DNA of 39,293 nucleotides from Phoronis australis (taxonomy: Eukaryota; Animalia; Phoronida), in NCBI GenBank assembly GCA_002633005.1, contig NMRA01000452.1, forward strand, positions 328,021 through 367,313, in the 5' to 3' direction. The notes beneath the pieces were generated by a model, which ran no database searches, was not told the DNA's origin, and worked only from the letters and a program-made list of their open reading frames with translations. Below are positions 1-39,293 of the stretch, one piece after another (position 1 is the first letter of the stretch; every line of letters begins with the position of its first letter). Position numbers and translations under genes: made by a program.

Positions 1-1112
1 TGTAGTGCCAAGACATGATCACTAGAATTGTTGTATGCACTGCCAATGTCACTTAAACAAGACGCAATGTCGGGATGGTCAACGTCACCATATATCCTCT
101 TTCTCATTTTCAGTGACTCTTGCAAATACTGTAGTGCCGAGACATAATCACTAGAATTGTTGTATGCACTGCCAATGTCACTTAAGCAAGACGCAATGTA
201 GGGATGGTCAACGTCGCCATATATCCTCTTCCTCATTTCCAGTGACTCTTGAAAATACTGTAGTGCCGAAGCAGGATCTTTTGAGTTGTTGTATGCAATC
301 CCAACGTCACTTAATCCTGACGCAATGCCGGGATGGTCAACGTCGCCATATATCCTCTTCCTCATTTCCAGTGACTCTTGATAATACTGTAGTCCCGAGA
401 CATAATCACATGATTTGTTGTATGCAGTGCCAACGTAACTTAAAGAAGACGCAATGTCGGCATGATCAACGTTACCATATATCCTCTTTTTCATTTTCAG
501 TGAGTCTTGCAAATATTGTAGTGCCAAGACATGATCACTAGAATTGTTGTATGCACTGCCAATGTCACTTAAACAAGACGCAATGTCGGGATGGTCAACA
601 TCACCATATATCCTCTTTCTCATTTTCAGTGACTCTTGCAAATACTGTAGTGCCGAGACATAATCACTAGAATTGTTGTATGCACTGCCAATGTCACTTA
701 AGCAAGACGCAATGTAGGGATGGTCAACGTCGCCATATATCCTCTTCCTCATTTCCAGTGACTCTTGAAAATACTGTAGTGCCGAAGCAGGATCTTTTGA
801 GTTGTTGTATGCAATCCCAACGTCACTTAATCCTGACGCAATGCCGGGATGGTCAACGTCGCCATATATCCTCTTTCTCATTTCCAGTGACTCTTGATAA
901 TACTGTAGTCCCGAGACATAATCACATGATTTGTTGTATGCAGTGCCAACGTAACTTAAAGAAGACGCAATGTCGGCATGATCAACGTTACCATATATCC
1001 TCTTTTTCATTTTCAGTGAGTCTTGCAAATATTGTAGTGCCGAGACATAATCACTTGAATTGTTGTATGCACCGCCAACGTTTCTTAAATAAGACGCAAT
1101 GTCGGGATGGTC
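1..1112 (-). repeat. Coding tandem array of ~8.6 x 129-bp (43-aa) TPR units with a 516-bp four-unit higher-order duplication
   Basis: Consensus DHPDIASSLSxVGxAYNNSSDYVSALQYxQESLxMRKRIYGDV. Units start at 1112, 983, 854, 725, 596, 467, 338, 209 and 80. Bases 1-516 nearly match 517-1032. Confidence 0.95.
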
Positions 1113-3403
1113 AACGTCGCCATACATCTTCCTTGTCATTCTCAATGACCTTTTATGGTATTCTAATTCTCTATCATGCTTACTCATTTTACCGTAGATT
1201 GTCCCTATCTGACCCAATGTCTTTGCAATACTCGGATGGTCATTGTTTGAATGGATTTTCCTACTTAACCTTTCTGAATCTTCGGCTGCATCTGTTGCTT
1301 TATCGTGTTCTCCCATCGCACAATGCACCGTAGCAAGGAGACATTTAACTGAAACGGTATCATCTTGTTCGCCTTCTTTCAAAAGTTTCAATGTTTTAAT
1401 CGATGATAAACACCATTTCAACGAGTGTTCGTAGTTCCCATGATTATAGTACGCCATGGCTATCAGCTGCTTCAGTGTGGCTAATGTTCGGAGATATAAG
1501 TCCTCGTTCATGTTCATTGATTCAATGGAAAACTCTTGAACAAATGGTTGTCTGCTTAACGCTTTCTTGAGATCTTCAAGTAACTGGTTTGATAGTCTCT
1601 TTCCAGCCTCTTCATGCTTCTTCGTAATTTTTAATGCATGTATGTAATAATTAATTGCAGTACCATTTTGTCCTTTAAGGAAATACGCTTGCCCTATTAA
1701 CTGAAGACAATGACATACAAATCTGTCTTCGTGGTCACAGAAAACATCCTGTCCCTTGTGGTGCACCACTATGTCTTCTGTCTGTCTGTGTGGCGATTTC
1801 TTCTCCCAAACATATTCAATGTGGGTGAAAAATGTATCTAACGCGTTGTCATAGCGAAAGCAGCAAAGCTCTATGCAACCCTCGTAAAAATAATTTTTCT
1901 CAAAAAATGGCGCCTCAATCATTTTAGTTATGGGTGCAAGAACGAAGGACACATCTGTAATATAGTTAACTAACGGGTAGATAGAATAATAGTATCGGAC
2001 TATCAAATGTTTGAAATCGTCATACGGCTTGCCTAGCAACACAACGTCTTCCATTTGTCTACGCTGACTGCAATACTGTACAAGTCTGAATATACTTACA
2101 AATGAGACTATAAAGAGTAAGTTGTGCCTGCCATCAGGTGACAAAATGGCAGTGGATTTCATTTCATCAATGAGATCCCAAGTGTTGTCCTTAGTCAAAT
2201 TGAAAATAGCTTTAAATAAGGTAAGGACCAAGGTGGGCAGTCTGTACATTTCCTTTTTTATGTCATGAACATTTCCTGGCTTGTTGTGGAAGCTAAGCTC
2301 ATACAAGAACTCGTCCACAACATTGCGTATGTCACTGAAATATTTCAACCGTGCTTCTTCCTCCTTCTGGTGACGCGCTCGCTCTTGCCTGAATTCCTTC
2401 AGCAAGGATTCGTCTCCGTCAAGTTGCACTGTTGACATAAGAACGCGATCGAAGTTATACCCCTCTTTAATTGCTTGCCTGACTTCACACATTTCAGCCA
2501 TGTGTTTTGGTGTCTTGATTAATTCTATTCCGGCTTTACCTGGTCTATCAGGTCGCCCAAGTGGTGTCTTGCATGCGAATGGTACTGCACTATCAAATTC
2601 AAACCCACGAGCTACCACGTCATCAACAAACCAATTTCTACCTGGCGTGTCGTAGTCATTAAGCGACTTGATATGCATACTCTTAAGGTTTGTTTCTCGA
2701 ATATTTAAGACAAACAAGTGCATAAGTCTAGTCATGTTCCTGAAGTACTCAAGATCTTGTGCGTCATCCTTTACCAAAATGGCCCATTCCAAGTCCGAAT
2801 AGGGTGTTACCTCTCCCCTTCCCAAAGAGCCCATGGCAAACGCTGCGTAGTCCTGTGGGGGTGGGCCTAAAATTTCTCTGCATTTTGAGAGAAGGTATTT
2901 GTTCAAACCTTGCATTTGTGAGCACAAGGTCCGAAATATCGTTCTAGTTTCATCAACGAATACATGTTCTAATTTCAATCGCTCACTATCGGATGCTTCT
3001 AAATTGAATTCAGTGGCAAAAGTGCTCAGTAGTTCACCGGCTCCTGGAGAGGTCTGGATTCTGACATTTCTCAATTTTTCTACCACTTCGGACCTAAAAT
3101 CCATTGGTATTTTGCTACCAGACAGACAAAGCGTGGTACAGAATGCCGTTTCGTTGTCTCTTATTAAGATCTCCAACTCCTCAGTCATTTCAGTTTCAAC
3201 TCTCAGTATAGCGGCGTTATATAAGGCTGAAGCAGTAACGAAGTGTTGAGTACATTTTTGTAATAGCCCTCGCTTTTTGTAAATATCACCCATCTTTTGA
3301 AGGATTTTTCCACCTGACTCTGATTTTCTGTCATCCTTGCTTAGTTTTTTAAGCTTGGATGCTAATGAGTCTTCATCCTTGACCAGCCGTGATGACACTT
3401 CAT
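1..3403 (-). CDS. Large exon (3'-partial) of a nucleotidyltransferase (GlnD/DUF294-like) + TPR-array protein
   Basis: Hand translation of the minus strand is open from the acceptor ttgcag|AT GAA GTG (3403, phase 1) to the window edge: DEVSSRLVKDEDSLASKLKK...ILQKMGDIYKKRG..HFVTASALYNAAI...LGPPPQDYAAFAMGSLGRGEVTPYSDLEWAILV...GFEFDSAVPFACKTPLG...HDIKKEMYRLP...NTWDLIDEM...FRLVQY, then TPRs. Absent from the ORF track because no stop lies inside the window. Confidence 0.92.
2040..2900 (-). other. Pol-beta superfamily nucleotidyltransferase domain (GlnD/GlnE/DUF294-like) followed by a DUF294_C-like helical domain
   Basis: hGS-x10-DLE signature at 2772-2867, preceded by GPPP..YA..AM. Candidate third acid in GFEFD (~2592-2606). 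DIKKE.YRLP (~2264) and NTW.LID....LS......L......FRL resemble the DUF294 C-terminal domain. Confidence 0.8.
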
Positions 3404-4445: not shown

Positions 4446-4604
4446 CTGACACGTCTTTTGCTTCACCCTCGTCGGCCTGTTTATCGCTGTCTGATGAAGG
4501 ACAGACTGATGATGGTCCATCTGCCGGCTCCTGCGCTTCCTTTCCTGACGTAGTACAGACCTCATCTACAGACCTGTCTTCTGTGTTCTTGATGTCGTCA
4601 TATT
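4446..4604 (-). CDS. Internal 159-nt phase-1/1 exon, acidic low-complexity (copy 3)
   Basis: Acceptor atacag|AATATGAC, donor GTGTCAG|gtataa. Encodes EYDDIKNTEDRSVDEVCTTSGKEAQEPADGPSSVCPSSDSDKQADEGEAKDVS. Phase matches the 3403 acceptor. Confidence 0.82.
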
Positions 4605-5417
4605 CTGTATACACATTCAATGACTGCAGTTATGTTGAACTGTTATGTAAACAAGACTACAAAATTTAAATTATCATACACTGTATTTCTATCCACTTTA
4701 ATAAAGGTTTGAAATTTTAATAATTTTCTTATAGTCCCAGTGCTTGATCAGCTAGTCACTTGATTTATAATGACACAAGCAAAATGTATCAACATCAGGT
4801 ATTAAGATATCTTGTAGGAAACCAGTCGGTGTTTACAATAATTTTTAAACTCATTTTATGTTTGAAAATGTAGCCAGAAACAATAAATGTATCATAGCAG
4901 GAAGGAATTTTCTTCCGGTTTGAAGACTGAATGAAAAAATCATATTAGTAGATTACTTCATGGGGGTGCTTAAATGGGGGACTGGAATTTCATGTCTTGA
5001 TTAGATGTAGCGATAACAATCAAAACTAAAACAGGCATGTAGTCAACCCACACTATTTTTGTAGAACGCAGAGATGCCGAAAAAGGATCAAACTACCGCT
5101 TCCGCCGCCAGTGCTTCTCATAACTAAACACGAACGTGGCCTGAAATTAGACCCATGTTTAATGACGTATACATCAAAATAAAAGTATATCACCTCCAAT
5201 CAACCACGCCGAAACATTCGAAATTTGAATCATGTTTCGCTCAAAACAAGTTTCCTTTTACGACTAGAGTCAATTTCAATGAAGTGTTATAATACAACCA
5301 ACACGAGAAAAATCGTCCAAATGCATTGTGCAGGTACTACACGTGTTTTCAATCTGATATGATGTTTAGTTGATTAAATTGTTACCCTGCAACTTGATTG
5401 CTTTCCTATGGTTATAC

Positions 5418-5576
5418 CTGAGACGTCTGTTGCTTCACCCTCGTCGGCCTGTTTATCACTGTCTAATGAAAAAGAGCGTGATGATGGTCCATGTGCCAGC
5501 CGCTCCTCTTTCTTCCCAGATTTGGTGCAGACCTCATCTATACACCTGTCTTCGGGGTTCTTGCTGTCGTCACATT
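5418..5576 (-). CDS. Internal 159-nt phase-1/1 exon (copy 2)
   Basis: Acceptor catgcag|AATGTGAC, donor GTCTCAG|gtataa. Encodes ECDDSKNPEDRCIDEVCTKSGKKEERLAHGPSSRSFSLDSDKQADEGEATDVS. Confidence 0.82.
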
Positions 5577-6265
5577 CTGCATGCATATTGAACGACTGTC
5601 TTGGTTATGGAGAAATTGCTTTCAATTGCACAAAAACTGCTTGCATATTCCGCAAACCTAAAGTGTAGGGTGTTAAGGGTAAAATGACCAACTTGATCTA
5701 AATTTCCAACTTCAGAGACTGCTTATACCTTTTGCACAATAATTATAATTCCATTCAATGTGCAAGCAATCCTAATCCATTTGAAACAAGACTGTGTCAA
5801 AATTTAAAAATTCACTTTAATAAAGTAGTGAGTTTTCAATATTAAGCCTACACCGCCTCTCATCACAAAATATAAACGTGACTTGGACTTAGTTCTATTT
5901 TTCATGACCTATATTACAAAATGTAAATAATATCACCTCCACACAATCACCGTAAATTCGATTTTCTACAACGTTAGGGAGTTTTTGATAGTTTTGCGAT
6001 GAAAAGGCGTTTTTTTTTTCGTAAACAACTCCACTAAATTTGAAGCGTGTTTTGAACAAGACAATTTCGTCTCATTTACTGACATTTTGTCATCTCATTA
6101 GGACATGAGTGAATCTCATTGACATCAGGTGACACTATCGAAACAACAAAAACCGCTCAAATACTGTACATCTTTTGCAGGCACTATGATTACTGTTTTA
6201 TCTGATTATGAGTTTTGTTGATCAAATTGTTACATTATAAGCTGATTGCTTTCCTGACATCATAC

Positions 6266-6424
6266 CTGGCACATCTGTTGCTTCACCCTCGTCGACCTGT
6301 TTATCGCTGTCTGATAAAGGAGAGCGTGATGATGGTCCATGTGCCGGCCCTTGCGCTTCGTTTCCAGATTCGGTATGGACATCATCTATACACCTGTCTT
6401 CGGGGCTCTCGCTGTTGACAGATT
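6266..6424 (-). CDS. Internal 159-nt phase-1/1 exon (copy 1)
   Basis: Acceptor catgcag|AATCTGTC, donor GTGCCAG|gtatga. Encodes SVNSESPEDRCIDDVHTESGNEAQGPAHGPSSRSPLSDSDKQVDEGEATDVP. Confidence 0.82.
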
Positions 6425-8749: not shown

Positions 8750-9560
8750 CTGGTGGGTGTGGTGAGGGGAGCCAAGAGAATGACACTCAAAAATTGAGCT
8801 AGATCAACTTTTCTGGTAACCACATAATCTGCCGTCGATACCTGCTACGTCATCCATTGTATCAAAATTGGTCACTGCGAGACAATTTCTGTGGTGGGAA
8901 GTACCCGCCAGACAAACATATACAGGGTACAAAAATTGAGCTAGATCAATCCAAGAGGTAACCGCTTGAAACCAGTCGCAAAATTTATTATTCATCGTAA
9001 GCACAGGTACCACGAATGAGCACTGCCAGAAAAATCTAGTGGTGGGTTACCCTCGCCAGACACGCCTAAATACCAGAATTGAGCTAGATCAATCCATCAG
9101 GTAACCGTTTGAAACCAATTGCACTACGTTCAGCATCACTGAACAGTTTGATGCCAGACAATTTCAATGGTGGGGTGCCCCTGCCAGACGATTATCAAAA
9201 AGGGTTAAAAATTGAGCTAGATCAACCCAAGAGGTAACCGCCTAAAACCAGTTCCAAAATATTCACCGTAAGCCCAGGTATCACGAATTAACACTGCCAG
9301 ACAAATCTAGTGTTGGGTTAGCCACGCCAGACACGTCCAAATACATGAATTGAGCTAGATCAACCCAAGAGGTAACTGCATGAAACAAGTAGCAAAATAT
9401 TTGCCGTAAGCCCTGGTATCAAGAATGAATACTGCCAGACAAATCTAGTGGTGGGTTATCCCCGCCAGGCACGCCCAAGTACCTGAGTTTAGCTAGGTCA
9501 ACCCACAAGGAAACCGCTTGAAACCAATCGCCCGATGCTCAGCATCATTGCACGTGGCAA
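8750..9560 (+). repeat. Tandem repeat of about six ~140-bp units
   Basis: Core AATTGAGCTAGATCAA (last copy degenerate) at about 8792, 8934, 9077, 9210, 9348 and 9487. Each unit also carries GCCAGACA..GTGGTGGG..GCCAGAC. Confidence 0.85.
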
Positions 9561-10029
9561 AACAGTAAGATGCCTCCATCAAACAAATAGGGAGTCGAAA
9601 CAACATTGATTATAAGCCCATTCACGCTGAATAAGCATCACAATCAGGAACCAGGCACTTCGATTTTCAATAAAGCCACTAAGTCTGTACGACATAGGTC
9701 ACCGCACAAGGTGAGAGATTTTTGTCCGCAAGTTTATGTCTGGGCATGAACAATAGAAAAACCGCGCCTGAGGTTGGAGCGATCTCACAAGTCCATGCGA
9801 AAACAGCAGAATACTCCACATAATTCACTATTAAAACGAAACCTAAAAACTCGTCCAAGACGGATACCACATTTTTTCGTTATCCTATTTTACCAGTCTA
9901 AACTGCCTCCCTTTGTTTTCGGACGAGTCATTTGATGCAACTGCTAAAAGGAATAATAATCAAAATGCCGTCTTTTGCTGTCCCCTGCGTCATCTACCTT
10001 CATTTCACACGGTGATGAATTGCAAATTT

Positions 10030-13030: not shown

Positions 13031-13330
13031 TGTCTGGCGGGGCTAACCCACCACTAGATTTGTCTGGCAGTGTTTATTCGTGATACCTGGGCTTACTGTG
13101 AATATTTTGGAACTGGATTTAGGCGGTTACCTCTTGGGTTGATCTAGCTCAATTTTTAACCCTTTTTGATAATCGTCTGGCAGGGGCGCCCCACCATTGA
13201 AATTGTTTGGCATCTAGCTGTTGTGCCATGTTCAGTGATGCTGAACATCGTGCAATTGGTTTCAAACGGTTACCTCATGGGTTGATCTAGCTCAATTCTG
13301 CTATTTGGGCGTGTCTGGCGGGGTAACCCA
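13031..13330 (-). repeat. Inverted copy of ~9040-9335 (140-bp repeat family), next to the N at 13030
   Basis: Reverse-complement match over ~300 bp, e.g. GGTTACCTCTTGGGTTGATCTAGCTCAATTTTTAACCCTTTTTGATAATCGTCTGGCAGGGG. Confidence 0.85.
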
Positions 13331-25882: not shown

Positions 25883-26854
25883 CTACAAACTTACATCTAC
25901 ATTAGCTTCCGTCGTCATCTGTTTTGCTTCACCGTATTTGCTGGCTTGTGCTAGGATTTCTCCCACATCTGTCTTAAAGGCAAGAAGAACATCTCGCCCT
26001 TGGTGATGATCTTCTAATTCTGGAATGTGGAAGAGCAACCGTTCTTTCAGTAGGGTAGCATGTGTGTCGGGTGATTCGATTCCTAGCTGCTCCAGCCTCT
26101 TCCTGTACAGACAAAACAAGTCTACAAGTCGGAAAACCGGTGGATCTGAACCATCACTTGCAGTTTTCACCTCAGTAATGTATGTCACGAGTTCCGAAAA
26201 AGTCATCGGATAAGCATTCTTTGTTTGGAGAGTCCCTTCTTCTTTCTTATGCTTTTGAGCATTCAGAAATGCCCTTTCTCTGTTGTACAGAGCTAACAAG
26301 CATGCTGGATGATATTTTACTTCCTGTGCGATGACATCTCCGGCACTAAGTTTTGCTAGGAGCTTACCATCATTGAGAGTCTTGGCACATTCATTGATAG
26401 TGTGGTTCAATGTCAAGGTCATAGCTTGTCTCAGGGTTTCCCCTTCCTCCTCAAACAAGAAGCATTCGGTAGTCTTGGGGTCTATGATTCTCCTTGGTAC
26501 TTTGCTGTAGTTGCTACTGTCACTAATGTATGATACAAGGGCTGATGATCTTTTTTCAGCTCGCTGCAGGTTCGTATTGCAGAAGAGCCACCTGCAGCTG
26601 GAATGGTACTGGGCATTGTTCTTTCTCAAAGTGTTCTCTATCCCGCTGCCATCGTCAAGTCTTGCGGGATCCAGATGTATTGGCAATTCATTGAGAGAAT
26701 GAAATTGAGGGTTATTCGCCCCTAACTGGCTGTATCCGCAATCTTGCCGTTTCGAAGGATTTGAAAGTGGAGACGTGAGATATTCCTTCATGTCCGTTTG
26801 ACAAAGACAACATTTGTCCAAGTTGGTGCGCCAAAGTGTTTTACTGGAAGCCAT
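25883..26854 (-). pseudogene. N-terminal part of an Academ-like transposase, truncated
   Basis: 323-aa ORF with CCLCQ, RLDDGSGIENTL..NNAQYHSSCR, LLAKLSAGDVIAQEVKYHPACLLALYNR and VFRL.DL..LY..RLEQLG....HAT.LKERLL. No catalytic core follows. Confidence 0.65.
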
Positions 26855-32030: not shown

Positions 32031-32557
32031 TCGCATCCCAAATAGCTACTACAAAGTTTAAGAGAGGCAACTTATGTTGAACAGAATGCTGTTATCTTCG
32101 TAATCCTGTGATCTCATCCAGATCATCAGCCGTCGGAAGCAGGTTTGATTTCAAAACCTGGTACGTGGCCTCTCAGTAGCGAGTCGACAGTGGCTGGCTA
32201 TGTCACTGTCCATCAGAGGATGGCTTCCAGTTGCGCTGTTCTCGTCTCCACCACAACCAGCATAATGCCTGTTCCGCCACTTCACTAAATTGCCTGACTG
32301 TTTCGCATCCCAAAGCACAATAGCTACTACAAAGTTTAAGAGAGGCAACTTATATTGAACAGAATGTTGTAATCTTCATAATCCTGTGATCTCATCCAGA
32401 CCACCAGCATTCGGAAGCAGGTTTGATTCCAAAATCTGGTACGCGGCCTCTCAGTAGCGAGTCGACAGTGGCTGGCCACGTCAAAGGATGGCTTCCAGTT
32501 GCGCTGTTCTCGTCTCCATCACAACCAGCATAATGCCTGTTCCGCCACTTCACTAAA
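32031..32557 (-). repeat. ~270-bp tandem duplication, probably the 3' end of a Hero/R2-group non-LTR element
   Basis: Copies at ~32031-32289 and ~32303-32557. The minus strand reads SEVAEQALCWLWWRREQRNWKP, like the AE.AS.WLW.RR...W C-terminus of restriction-endonuclease-type LINEs. The duplication is clear; the family call is tentative. Confidence 0.6.
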
Positions 32558-32709
32558 GCGCCTCACTGTATTGCGATGTTACTTGGCAGTTATGTTGTTA
32601 GACGTCGATGAGCCGCTTGACCAGGGAATCATCTTGTTCTTGTTTCCACAGCTTTTTAGTCACGTGTTATCGGTCTCATTATTTCAGAAGTTTTGTGACT
32701 AAGATAGCA

Positions 32710-34700
32710 AGTAATGAAGTAAAGTAAGTAATTTTTATCATAGTGACGTGTTCAAATGAATTTAAACAATTAATACGTTACAAAACAGGATCACCCAGCC
32801 CTCCACTGGGCTTATAAGTCACTTAAGACACATGATAAAAAAAGAAAAAAGTGTACACTCATTGCAAGCGGACCAAAGAGAGAACACGGAGATAACAGTG
32901 ATCATGTATAAATATAATTTTTCCTTACTTCAAAAATATTTTTGATGAAAACTGAAGTTTTTCTGTTAACATCTTTTTGCATAATTGTACGAAATCATGT
33001 ATATTTAATCTCAACTTGACAATAAAAAGTGTTTCTGGCATCTAAGAAAAACGGACACTCAAACAGAAAATGTAGTTCAGTTTCGACCTGACCAGTGTGA
33101 CAAAGACAGCAAATTCTATCATCAAATTCTAGCGAACAAAAACGCCCAACCTCAAGCAATAGCTGTAGGGTTCCGCTTCTAATTTGAGCAAGAATTGACC
33201 TACTAGGCAGAGTTAAGTCTAAATGCACTTAAGGCTCAACTTCAAAAACATGCTTCATCAAAACATAGGTACTTAACTTTCCTTTCGAACGGCATCCAAA
33301 AAACAACCCATTACAAGCCAAATCATGCAAAATATTCTTACAGTGAGAGATAAAATGAACATAAGTCATGAACAAAACTTCAGAAGATCAATTATTAGTA
33401 CAGGTAGTGTAAATGCACAAAAGTCTATCTTCTTCGAATTTTAAAACACGATTCCACATTCTCAAAGGCTCAATTTTCCGGAGAATTCCCACCCCATGTC
33501 ACCCATAACAGCATGATTAGGATCGAGTTCGTGAACGCCCAAAAAATCGCACGGCTCTATTCTGAATGACATCATAGTCCTGTAAACTAGAATCCCCAAA
33601 GACACCAACACAATAATCTTTAACAGGTACAACGCATGCATTGGATAATGTAGTGAATGTTCTGTACCTCAAATATTTATTCTTTTTAAATTTATTAATT
33701 AAAGCGCCCAAAGTTCTTCCGGCGGATTCGGACAGAGTTTTAGCAGTTTTCAGAAAACTTTAAAAAGTTCATTTAAAATCATTCCTAAATATTTATAATT
33801 AGGTACATACTTTAGGTCCAGTCGACCCAACCGAAATGGATATAGACTAGGAGAGACATGCTTGGATCTGAAGTAAATAATATTAGTTTTTTCCTGATTG
33901 ACAATTAGCCTCCATTTAGAGCACCATTTGTCAACTATATTCAATAAACCCTGTAAATTTTCTTCGCTCTCGGCAAGTACAACTATATCATCCACATAAA
34001 ACAAAGATTAAACATTATCAACACCCATAAGAATTCCTAAATTTAACTGTTTTAATTCCGTTGCCAAATCATTTATAAATAGTGCAAAAAGAGTGGGTGA
34101 TGAAACATCTCTTGTTTGACCCCATAAGTTGTATCAAATAAGTCTGTAATGGTATTAATTTTGAACACAGGATTGACTTTCGGCATAGATATTTTTAACC
34201 GATTCATGAAGCTTTCTAACTATCTAGCATTTGAAAAAAGTAAACTATTTCTATCTACCCAGTCAAAAGCTTTTTGCATATCAATAAAACTCGCAAATAT
34301 TGATTTTTTTGGTATTCAATCGGTTACGTATAACCGAGGTCAAAACAAAGACGTGATCAACACATGCTCTGTCACGACGAAAGCCATTTTGCTCTTCAAC
34401 AAGGAGCCCGATTTCCTCCGCGTACTCAACCAGTCTATTTTGTTCAATGCACTACTATACAACTTGTATATGTTGGACAGCAAGCTAATTCCCCTATAAC
34501 TCAACGGGACGTGCGGGTCCTTCTCTGACCCCTTTGGAATTGGCATAATAAGGGATTTATCCCATAAACTAGGAACCATGCCGTAACGAAAACCATTTGG
34601 AACAAATAAGTCAAAAGGTCAATAGCGGTATCATTTTTACATACTTGGTTAATTCCTACTTCTTTATAATAATTAGATTTCATCACTGCCCGCGTTACTT
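32710..34700 (-). mobile_element. Degraded 5'-truncated non-LTR retrotransposon (reverse transcriptase, RTE-X-like)
   Basis: Frameshifted RT motifs PIPKG..DP.VPLSYRGISLLS, FIDMQKAFDWVDR, SPTLFALFINDL, YVDDIVVLAESEENLQ, YKYLG, and C-terminal LEVGRF..RICCLC..VETELHFLFECP. (TTAC)-like tail near 32710-32740. Confidence 0.88.
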
Positions 34701-38268: not shown

Positions 38269-39293
38269 TTACATAATTAAAGTCTCTCCTTGTGTTTCTG
38301 CAATGTTAACGTGGTCTTCTTCACCAAATAATCTTTTGGTGATGCCCAGTGATTGAGTGCAGTAGTCCACAGCTTCATTCAGTTCATCCATTTTTAGATA
38401 AACCTCACTGTTGATAATACTGTAGTGCCGAGACATAATCACTTGAGTTGTTGTATGCACCGCCAACGTAACTTAAAGAAGACGCAATGTCGGGATGGTC
38501 AACGTCGCCATATATCCTCTTCCACATTTCCAGTGACTCATGATAATACTGTAGTGCCGAGACATAATCACTTGAGTTGTTGTATGCACCGCCAACGTAA
38601 CTTAAAGAAGACGCAATGTCGGGATGGTCAACGTCGCCATATATCCTCTTCCTCATTTCCAATGACTCTTGATAGTACTGTAGGGCCGAAGCATGATCTT
38701 TTGAGTTGTTGTATGCACCGCCAACGTTACTTCAAGAAGACGCAATGTCGGGATGGCCAACGTTACCATATATCCTCTTTCTCATATTCAGTGAGTCTTG
38801 CAAATACTGTTTTGCCAAGACATGATCACTTGATTGGTTGTATGAATCGCCAACGTTACTTAAAGAAGACGCAATGTCGGGATGGTCAACGTCGCCATAT
38901 ATCCTCTTTCTCATTTTCAGTGACTCTTGCGAATACTGTAGTGCCGAAGCATGATCTTTTGAGTTGTTGTATGCATCGCCAACGTTACTTAAAGAAGACG
39001 CAATGTCGGCATGATCAACGTTACCATATATCCTCTTCCTCATTTTCAGTGACTCTTGATAATACTGTAGTGCCAAGACAGCATCACTAGAATTGTTGTA
39101 TGCACTGCCAATGTCACTTAAACAAGACCCAATGTCGGGATGGTCAACGTCGCCATATATCCTCTATCTTATTTTCAGAGGCTCTTGCAAATACTGTATT
39201 GCCAAGACATGGGCGCTAGAATTGTTGTATGCACCACCAACGTTACATAAAGAAGACGCAATGTCGGGATGGTCAACGTCGCCATATATCCTC
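38269..39293 (-). pseudogene. Disrupted 3' end of a paralogous 43-aa TPR-array gene (5'-partial)
   Basis: Seven units (starts 39274 to 38500, 129-bp period). In-frame TAG at 39164-39166 (Lys position) and TGA at 38732-38734 (Leu position). A frameshift near 38410 puts the cap SEVYLKMDELNEAVDYCTQSLGITKRLFGEEDHVNIAETQ out of frame. Confidence 0.82.

Follow-up and report, generated by a model that had tools for sequence, protein, structure and literature searches.

The window analysed here, the whole stretch of 39,293 nucleotides from the Phoronis australis contig NMRA01000452.1, carries two 129-bp tandem arrays of TPR units on its minus strand, array A at 1..~1149 and array B at 38405..39293 (85-86% identity at the DNA level). 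The question raised by this locus is whether the units have been homogenised while their ligand groove was diversified by selection, and to what kind of protein such a groove would belong. The original prediction took up the variation of the repeats and did not mention the enzyme domain that lies in the same reading frame.

Gene layout and the enzyme domain

On the minus strand, an open frame runs from 3398 off window position 1, giving at least 1132 amino acids, with its 3' end beyond the window. The large exon that contains it probably starts at an AG acceptor at 3405-3404, and its first part (3102..3403) encodes N-terminal TPR-like helices according to the frame and the structural model, residues 1-99 of which matched TPR folds. 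This is followed by a nucleotidyltransferase and helical domain (1941..3119), recognised by Pfam, the model and Foldseek, and then by a linking region (1113..1940) made of a degenerate TPR-like stretch and one diverged TPR unit (1113-1241). Array A itself (1..1112) consists of 8.6 near-identical 43-aa TPR units, A1 to A9, starting at 1112-129k, in an open frame. Within the 1132-aa frame, Pfam identified a nucleotidyltransferase domain, DUF294, at aa 160-224 (E 4e-8), as well as TPR_10/TPR_12 repeats. No NACHT or NB-ARC ATPase was found in this frame with Pfam, and there was no homolog match upstream within the window.

Three likely 159-bp phase-1 exons, with AG...GT ends and open frames, are located upstream at 6424-6266, 5576-5418 and 4604-4446 (within 4446..6424, minus strand). 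The segments encode an acidic repeated 53-aa linker and are 78-82% identical to one another, an exon-level duplication in the gene that also carries the TPR array. Judging from their phase, these exons would join the large exon in frame, and the large exon is likely the last one of a spliced gene. This part of the window holds the 3' portion of an animal-type gene, with an enzyme domain followed by a TPR array. A phage or bacterial origin of the window was ruled out by the likely GT-AG exons, microsatellites and a reverse-transcriptase fragment (33750-34004, minus strand, E 5e-12), which lies between the arrays together with a 323-aa frame without a Pfam match (25883-26854, minus strand) and a 270-bp tandem duplication (32031-32569). 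Elsewhere in the window, a 138-bp tandem repeat (8873-9574) has an inverted copy about 3.5 kb off (13031-13330), at 91% identity across 301 bases.

The model of aa 1-500 had a pLDDT of 90.6 and shows a pol-beta nucleotidyltransferase core with a C-terminal helical bundle. Foldseek matched it to the DrrA/SidM adenylyltransferase (6yx5) and to GlnE (1v4a and 3k7d) with E values of 6e-8 to 1e-6. The VIA Z scores were 25.8, 24.7 and 23.2 for the DrrA adenylyltransferase and both GlnE domains (304-326 residues, rmsd 3.3-4.1), with the next match at 11.8 and the small-molecule transferase ANT-4 at 7.7. For the Mab21/CD-NTase fold there was no Mab21 Pfam match and the best CD-NTase match had an E value of 0.54, absence from the fold list not being decisive against that fold. 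In 60 homologs, G190, S191, D202 and D269 were invariant and E204 was at least 90% conserved. The motif G190-S191-x10-D202-x-E204 (2787..2831, minus strand) agrees with what we take to be the G[GS]...D-x-[DE] metal-binding motif, which looks intact, and the G-x11-D-x-[DE] spacing is presumably common to this domain and GlnE/DrrA. The enzyme domain shares a predicted fold with GlnE and DrrA over about 310-330 residues (Z 23-26), but differs from them by its low identity (11-14%), by the E at the second acidic position and by its fusion to TPRs.

The enzyme region looks to be under purifying selection, as 10 of 13 read differences in aa 141-340 were silent and 3 were replacements among those listed (37 in the frame). 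Among the same listed differences, aa 481-762 had 5 of 15 silent and 10 of 15 replacement. In two RNA runs, chosen by species label, 84 and 257 reads fell on the array and 18-27 on the enzyme region. The first mate was on the plus strand for all array reads in both runs, which points to transcripts of the coding strand, provided that the libraries follow the common stranded design. Most of these reads were 85-99% alike to the locus, so paralogs or other alleles could be their source. The splicing described above is a prediction from exon ends and open frames.

Exchange between units and the position of their differences

Array A contains a four-unit, 516-bp in-register duplication (1..1041, minus strand), seen from the lag-516 mismatches and the codons. 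Positions 1-525 and 517-1041 have 2 differences in 525 bases, both synonymous, the duplication boundary is inside unit A1, and units A6-A9 are 1, 0, 1 and 0 nt apart from A2-A5. As A6-A9 are copies of A2-A5, only five coding units of array A are independent. Array B, the 3' end of a paralogous array, is interrupted in frame by stops at B1 codon 37 (39166-39164) and B5 codon 9 (38734-38732). These stops block read-through of B2-B7 in that frame, and array B is likely untranslated. B7 equals B6 over its repeat part, and the 16 units are thereby reduced to 11 distinct ones, 6 of which come from the interrupted array. Units A6-A9 and B7 were excluded from all unit counts as duplicates.

The protein identity among the five distinct units of array A is 73% over 38 columns and is higher when the duplicated units are counted; for comparison, the yardstick for TPR arrays of high internal conservation (HIC), as in fungal NLRs, is an internal identity of about 85% across at least 100 aa. 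The four-gamete test was failed by 74 of 171 informative site pairs, meaning that the units are mosaics. The repeats thus show the duplication and exchange that are a trait of HIC TPR arrays. The concerted evolution that had been predicted for the repeats is supported by the 85% tandem identity, the 516-bp duplication and these incompatible site pairs.

The residues and codons listed in the original prediction for positions 4, 8, 11, 14 and 29 are exactly those present in the units, with G and Y at position 4 contributed by one independent unit each and D found there throughout array B. The prediction also held that neighbouring codons and silent sites were largely identical, and for the silent sites this was not confirmed. 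Across the 11 distinct units, pairwise pS was 0.150 and pN 0.137, and the variable columns at codon positions 1, 2 and 3 numbered 18, 15 and 22 of 43, so that third positions varied most. Fourfold sites were invariant at 9 of 17. The minimum number of changes was 19 silent and 44 replacement, a pN/pS of 0.86. As pS and pN are about equal, homogenisation hits all sites rather than preserving a silent scaffold, and frozen silent sites are ruled out. The five codons that had been listed show a pN of 0.37 against 0.11 elsewhere, having been picked for varying. When all positions were ranked by variability the order was 14, 22, 29, 11, 8, 34, 20, 24, 42 and 36, with position 4 outside the top ten.

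The array model (pLDDT 95.8) matched consensus TPRs, LGN and kinesin light chain, and assigns unit positions 3-18 to helix A and 22-40 to helix B, which places position 29 on helix B. By alignment to the consensus TPR, the TPR position is the unit position minus 5. In the accessible part of Magliery and Regan 2005 (PMC1261162), TPR positions 2, 5, 9, 12, 13, 33 and 34 are given as the most variable and 2, 5, 6, 9, 12 and 13 as ligand contacts, corresponding together to unit positions 4, 5, 7, 10, 11, 14, 17 and 18. Positions 4, 11 and 14 are therefore groove sites (TPR 33, 6 and 9), while 8 and 29 are absent from those given there. Coupling analysis over 1740 adjacent unit pairs, used in place of burial computed from coordinates, linked 29 with 13, 17 and 36 within units and 8 with 36 of the preceding unit between units, and it also linked pairs along the groove (10-11', 17-18', 14-11', 10-7'). 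Position 36 couples in addition to 6, as well as to 8 of the next unit. From these couplings, positions 8 and 29 are predicted to be packing or rim positions, so the idea that the variable residues line the groove holds for 4, 11 and 14 and not for 8 and 29.

Of the 44 minimum replacement changes, 19 fell in helix A, where 17.4 were expected (p = 0.38), and 12 in the a-priori groove set, where 8.2 were expected (p = 0.12 pooled). With sites placed by alignment and coupling, the enrichment p for the groove set was 0.09-0.10 in array A, 0.42-0.60 in array B and 0.12-0.23 pooled. Per-codon replacement counts showed no clear over-dispersion relative to Poisson (p = 0.24 pooled, 0.08 in array A). 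A concentration on one helix face, as had been proposed, is rejected: helix A as a whole is not significantly enriched, the variable sites 22 and 29 are on helix B, position 8 is a predicted packing contact and the groove positions 7 and 17 are invariant.

Selection tests and the wider family

Codon site models (M0, M1a/M2a, M7/M8 and M8a/M8) were applied to array A alone and to A and B pooled. The M0 omega was 0.72 for array A and 0.78 for the pooled units, and two site classes were better than one (p = 0.049 and 0.0002, respectively). Under M1a, 38-46% of codons had an omega of 0-0.13 and the remainder an omega of 1. A class above 1 brought no gain in array A alone (p = 0.38-0.67). In the pooled units, p was 0.068 for M1a/M2a, 0.049 for M7/M8 and 0.02 for M8a/M8, with a positive class of omega about 3.2 for 12% of codons and posteriors of 0.96-0.97 at 14 and 29 and 0.88 at 22, followed by 8. 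A multi-base change inflates the omega of codon models, and this would affect position 8 in units A3/A7. At codons 7-8 of these units, four adjacent bases are unlike the common form.

Selection tests of this kind are inflated here because the units are mosaics. In neutral simulations with recombination and matched divergence (0.143), the observed statistic of 5.37 was reached in 23 of 125 (p about 0.18), and in a smaller neutral set it was reached in 6 of 34 with recombination against 1 of 34 without. When the fitted positive class was included in the simulations, the median was 5.8 and 29 of 94 runs exceeded the 95th percentile of the neutral ones (9.2), a power of about 30%. Compared with all codons, the family's top-8 variable positions were enriched in array A (p = 0.02-0.04), and this fell to p = 0.09-0.14 once family-conserved scaffold positions were left out. 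The predicted diversifying selection is thus favoured by the pooled M8a/M8 comparison but not by array A alone or by the neutral recombining simulations, and the site tests do not separate it from relaxed selection with recombination.

The enzyme part had 1551 representatives at E <= 0.001 in a full HMMER scan, against 2 matches in a word-based search. The 20 enzyme homologs that were looked up were mostly lancelet proteins, plus Jidaibacter, and a search with the array added Owenia, Hydra, Midichloriaceae and Tisiphia, with the enzyme present in 51 of the 120 array matches listed. At least 5 similar units were found in 78 of 122 proteins, the most variable positions being 14, 7, 17, 36, 4 and 18, then 29; at least 5 near-identical units were found in 50 of 200 fetched enzyme-bearing proteins, with the same variable positions. 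In these 50 proteins, many of them lancelet paralogs and hence non-independent, the groove set held a median of 38% of the variation against 21% expected, with p < 0.05 in 37 of 50 (lancelets, Owenia and intracellular bacteria). The helix-B pair 29 and 36, outside the classic groove set, is also hypervariable across the family.

The groove share of the window is 24% pooled and 31% in array A, which is below 49 of 50 homologs pooled and below 40 of 50 for array A; a subsampled comparison was also made. Positions 7 and 17 are both invariant in the window and in none of the 50 homologs. Positions 11 and 20 are variable in the window, as in 3 and 2 of the 50 homologs, respectively, and the window array has lost the Asn (position 11) and the Gly (position 20) of the family. 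Position 14 is the window's most variable site and also the family's most variable groove site. Groove-focused variation is a trait of the family that is faint at the window locus.

On one bacterial contig (G001:C17:14681-43800; L068 and L069) there were seven tandem enzyme-TPR matches, one of them split into two frames, and the same 1.7-Mb genome had six more on other contigs. Four bacterial arrays had an omega of 0.36-0.57, with position 7 in the fast class in every one of them and 4, 14 and 36 in two. Their likelihood-ratio values for an omega above 1 (7.7, 0.5, 2.3 and 4.7) are weak and uncalibrated for recombination. As the omega of the window is above that of the bacterial arrays, a decay of constraint fits too. 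A near-identical 42-44-aa TPR array was found in none of 45 metagenome loci with the enzyme domain (L001-L045), loci that form another branch of the enzyme family. Some homologs have several matched enzyme stretches per protein, or fusions with Death and ROC-COR, OTU or ankyrin domains (P0123-P0128, P0147, P0047 and P0017).

Possible explanations and comparison with known systems

The reading that we favour, at a probability of roughly 0.55, is that the array is a binding surface that has been remodelled through unequal crossover and conversion, its scaffold under constraint and its surface only loosely so, and that the enzyme likely AMPylates a protein. Unequal crossover and gene conversion would homogenise silent and coding sites alike, the scaffold (about 40-45% of codons) would be held by purifying selection, and the remaining codons, in the groove and on the outer surface, would change roughly as fast as neutral sites, with mild positive selection perhaps acting on 14, 29 and 22. 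A new order of units could then present new groove surfaces. The array would likely select the target or the trigger of the enzyme, and the enzyme would AMPylate either the protein bound by the array or one next to it, with defence as a plausible role. Against this stand the low identity to DrrA and GlnE (11-14%) and the departure of the window array from its family: in the window array 7 and 17 are fixed, 11 and 20 vary and the groove share is lower. The rival readings are not all mutually exclusive.

It is possible, though in our judgement doubtful, that positive diversifying selection drives the groove residues of the window gene and that the units form a modular recognition code. The pooled M8a/M8 and M7/M8 comparisons, a statistic close to the median of the simulations with positive selection, the enrichment of the family's top-8 positions in array A and a precedent in the accessible text on fungal NLR TPRs (PMC4986451) all argue for it, but the test fails in array A alone, neutral recombining simulations reach the same statistic in 23 of 125, and the enrichment fades once the conserved scaffold positions are removed. 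Furthermore, among the best-supported sites the groove holds only 14, and more than half of the units (6/11) come from the interrupted array. An array that is simply drifting, its likeness a by-product of duplication and conversion, its constraint structural only and without a recognition role in this lineage, would be consistent with the overall pN/pS of 0.86, with replacement counts near Poisson, with the lost Asn and Gly, with the interrupted neighbouring paralog and with the generally fast horizontal evolution of repeats under strongly relaxed selection described in the available part of PMC5120217. We consider this improbable given the 3.4-kb open frame, the conserved motif, the silent-biased enzyme region, the significant heterogeneity among sites and the coincidence of the most variable site, 14, with the family's top groove site.

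Similarly improbable is an enzyme that makes a nucleotide signal or tails RNA after the array has sensed a ligand, in the manner of cGLRs or MNTs. Membership of the same pol-beta superfamily, the sensor-enzyme layout and the Death, ROC-COR, OTU or ankyrin domains on some homologs could point to this, but protein adenylyltransferases account for every one of the three clear structural matches (Z 23-26), with ANT-4 and the CD-NTases far weaker (Z 7.7 and E 0.54). The 516-bp duplication could also be an assembly artefact that joined two haplotypes, making the real array shorter, since no contig was found spanning array A and the copies differ by only 2 nt. This would be a poor bet, as the in-register boundary inside A1 is what unequal crossover would give and higher-order periods (84 and 86) occur in the arrays of homologs.

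Beyond the reading of a reshaped binding surface, a broader proposal can be made. Animals may hold an undescribed, expanded invertebrate AMPylase family that they share with intracellular bacteria and whose shuffled TPR array redirects AMPylation by means of a groove code (4/7/14/17/18 together with 29/36 on helix B); this would be a third animal AMPylase class and an NLR-like diversifying sensor, a speculative idea that we put forward tentatively. The eukaryotic AMPylases named in the accessible text of a 2025 review are FICD and SelO only (PMC12409994). If the enzyme does AMPylate proteins, invertebrates hold large bacterial-type AMPylase families beyond these two, and an AMPylase would be aimed by a quickly changing repeat array, whose 43-aa units offer a direct handle on whether unit swaps change the target. 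No paper on the animal enzyme-TPR family was found in a literature search of freely available articles. The family is likewise undescribed in the available portions of PMC3710099, PMC3482391, PMC8195603 and PMC6321704, and supplements on comparative genomics may list the architecture.

Compared with the generic TPR groove, as far as the source text goes, the variable positions 33, 2, 5, 9, 12 and 13 correspond to unit positions 4, 7, 10, 14, 17 and 18, which is the variable set of the family; the enzyme-TPR family adds helix-B 29 and 36, whereas 7 and 17 do not vary in the window array. According to the available text of PMC5120217, it is common for repeats to evolve under relaxed as well as positive selection. 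For the TPRs of fungal NLRs, concerted evolution and diversification of the concave face have been published (Dyrka et al. 2014, PMC4986451; PMC13449251, each in its accessible portion). Like those HIC arrays, the locus has KLC-like TPR units within the 42-44-aa range, 85-86% alike at the DNA level, with gain, loss and exchange of repeats, and relatives of the window array vary on the concave face. Unlike the fungal NLRs, in which positive selection has been demonstrated, the window gene is without NACHT/NB-ARC and its partner is a nucleotidyltransferase. The NB-ARC-TPR genes of Ectocarpus, in the part of PMC3341825 available, similarly belong to an expanded family that includes pseudogenes and have 42-aa TPR modules that are shuffled, but with one exon per repeat, whereas the window gene has its whole array in one exon and no ATPase. 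Fungal and algal immune receptors have therefore already provided published cases of this evolutionary pattern, of which the window locus is a weak example, and the novel part is likely to be the coupling of a variable TPR array to a probable AMPylase in animals.
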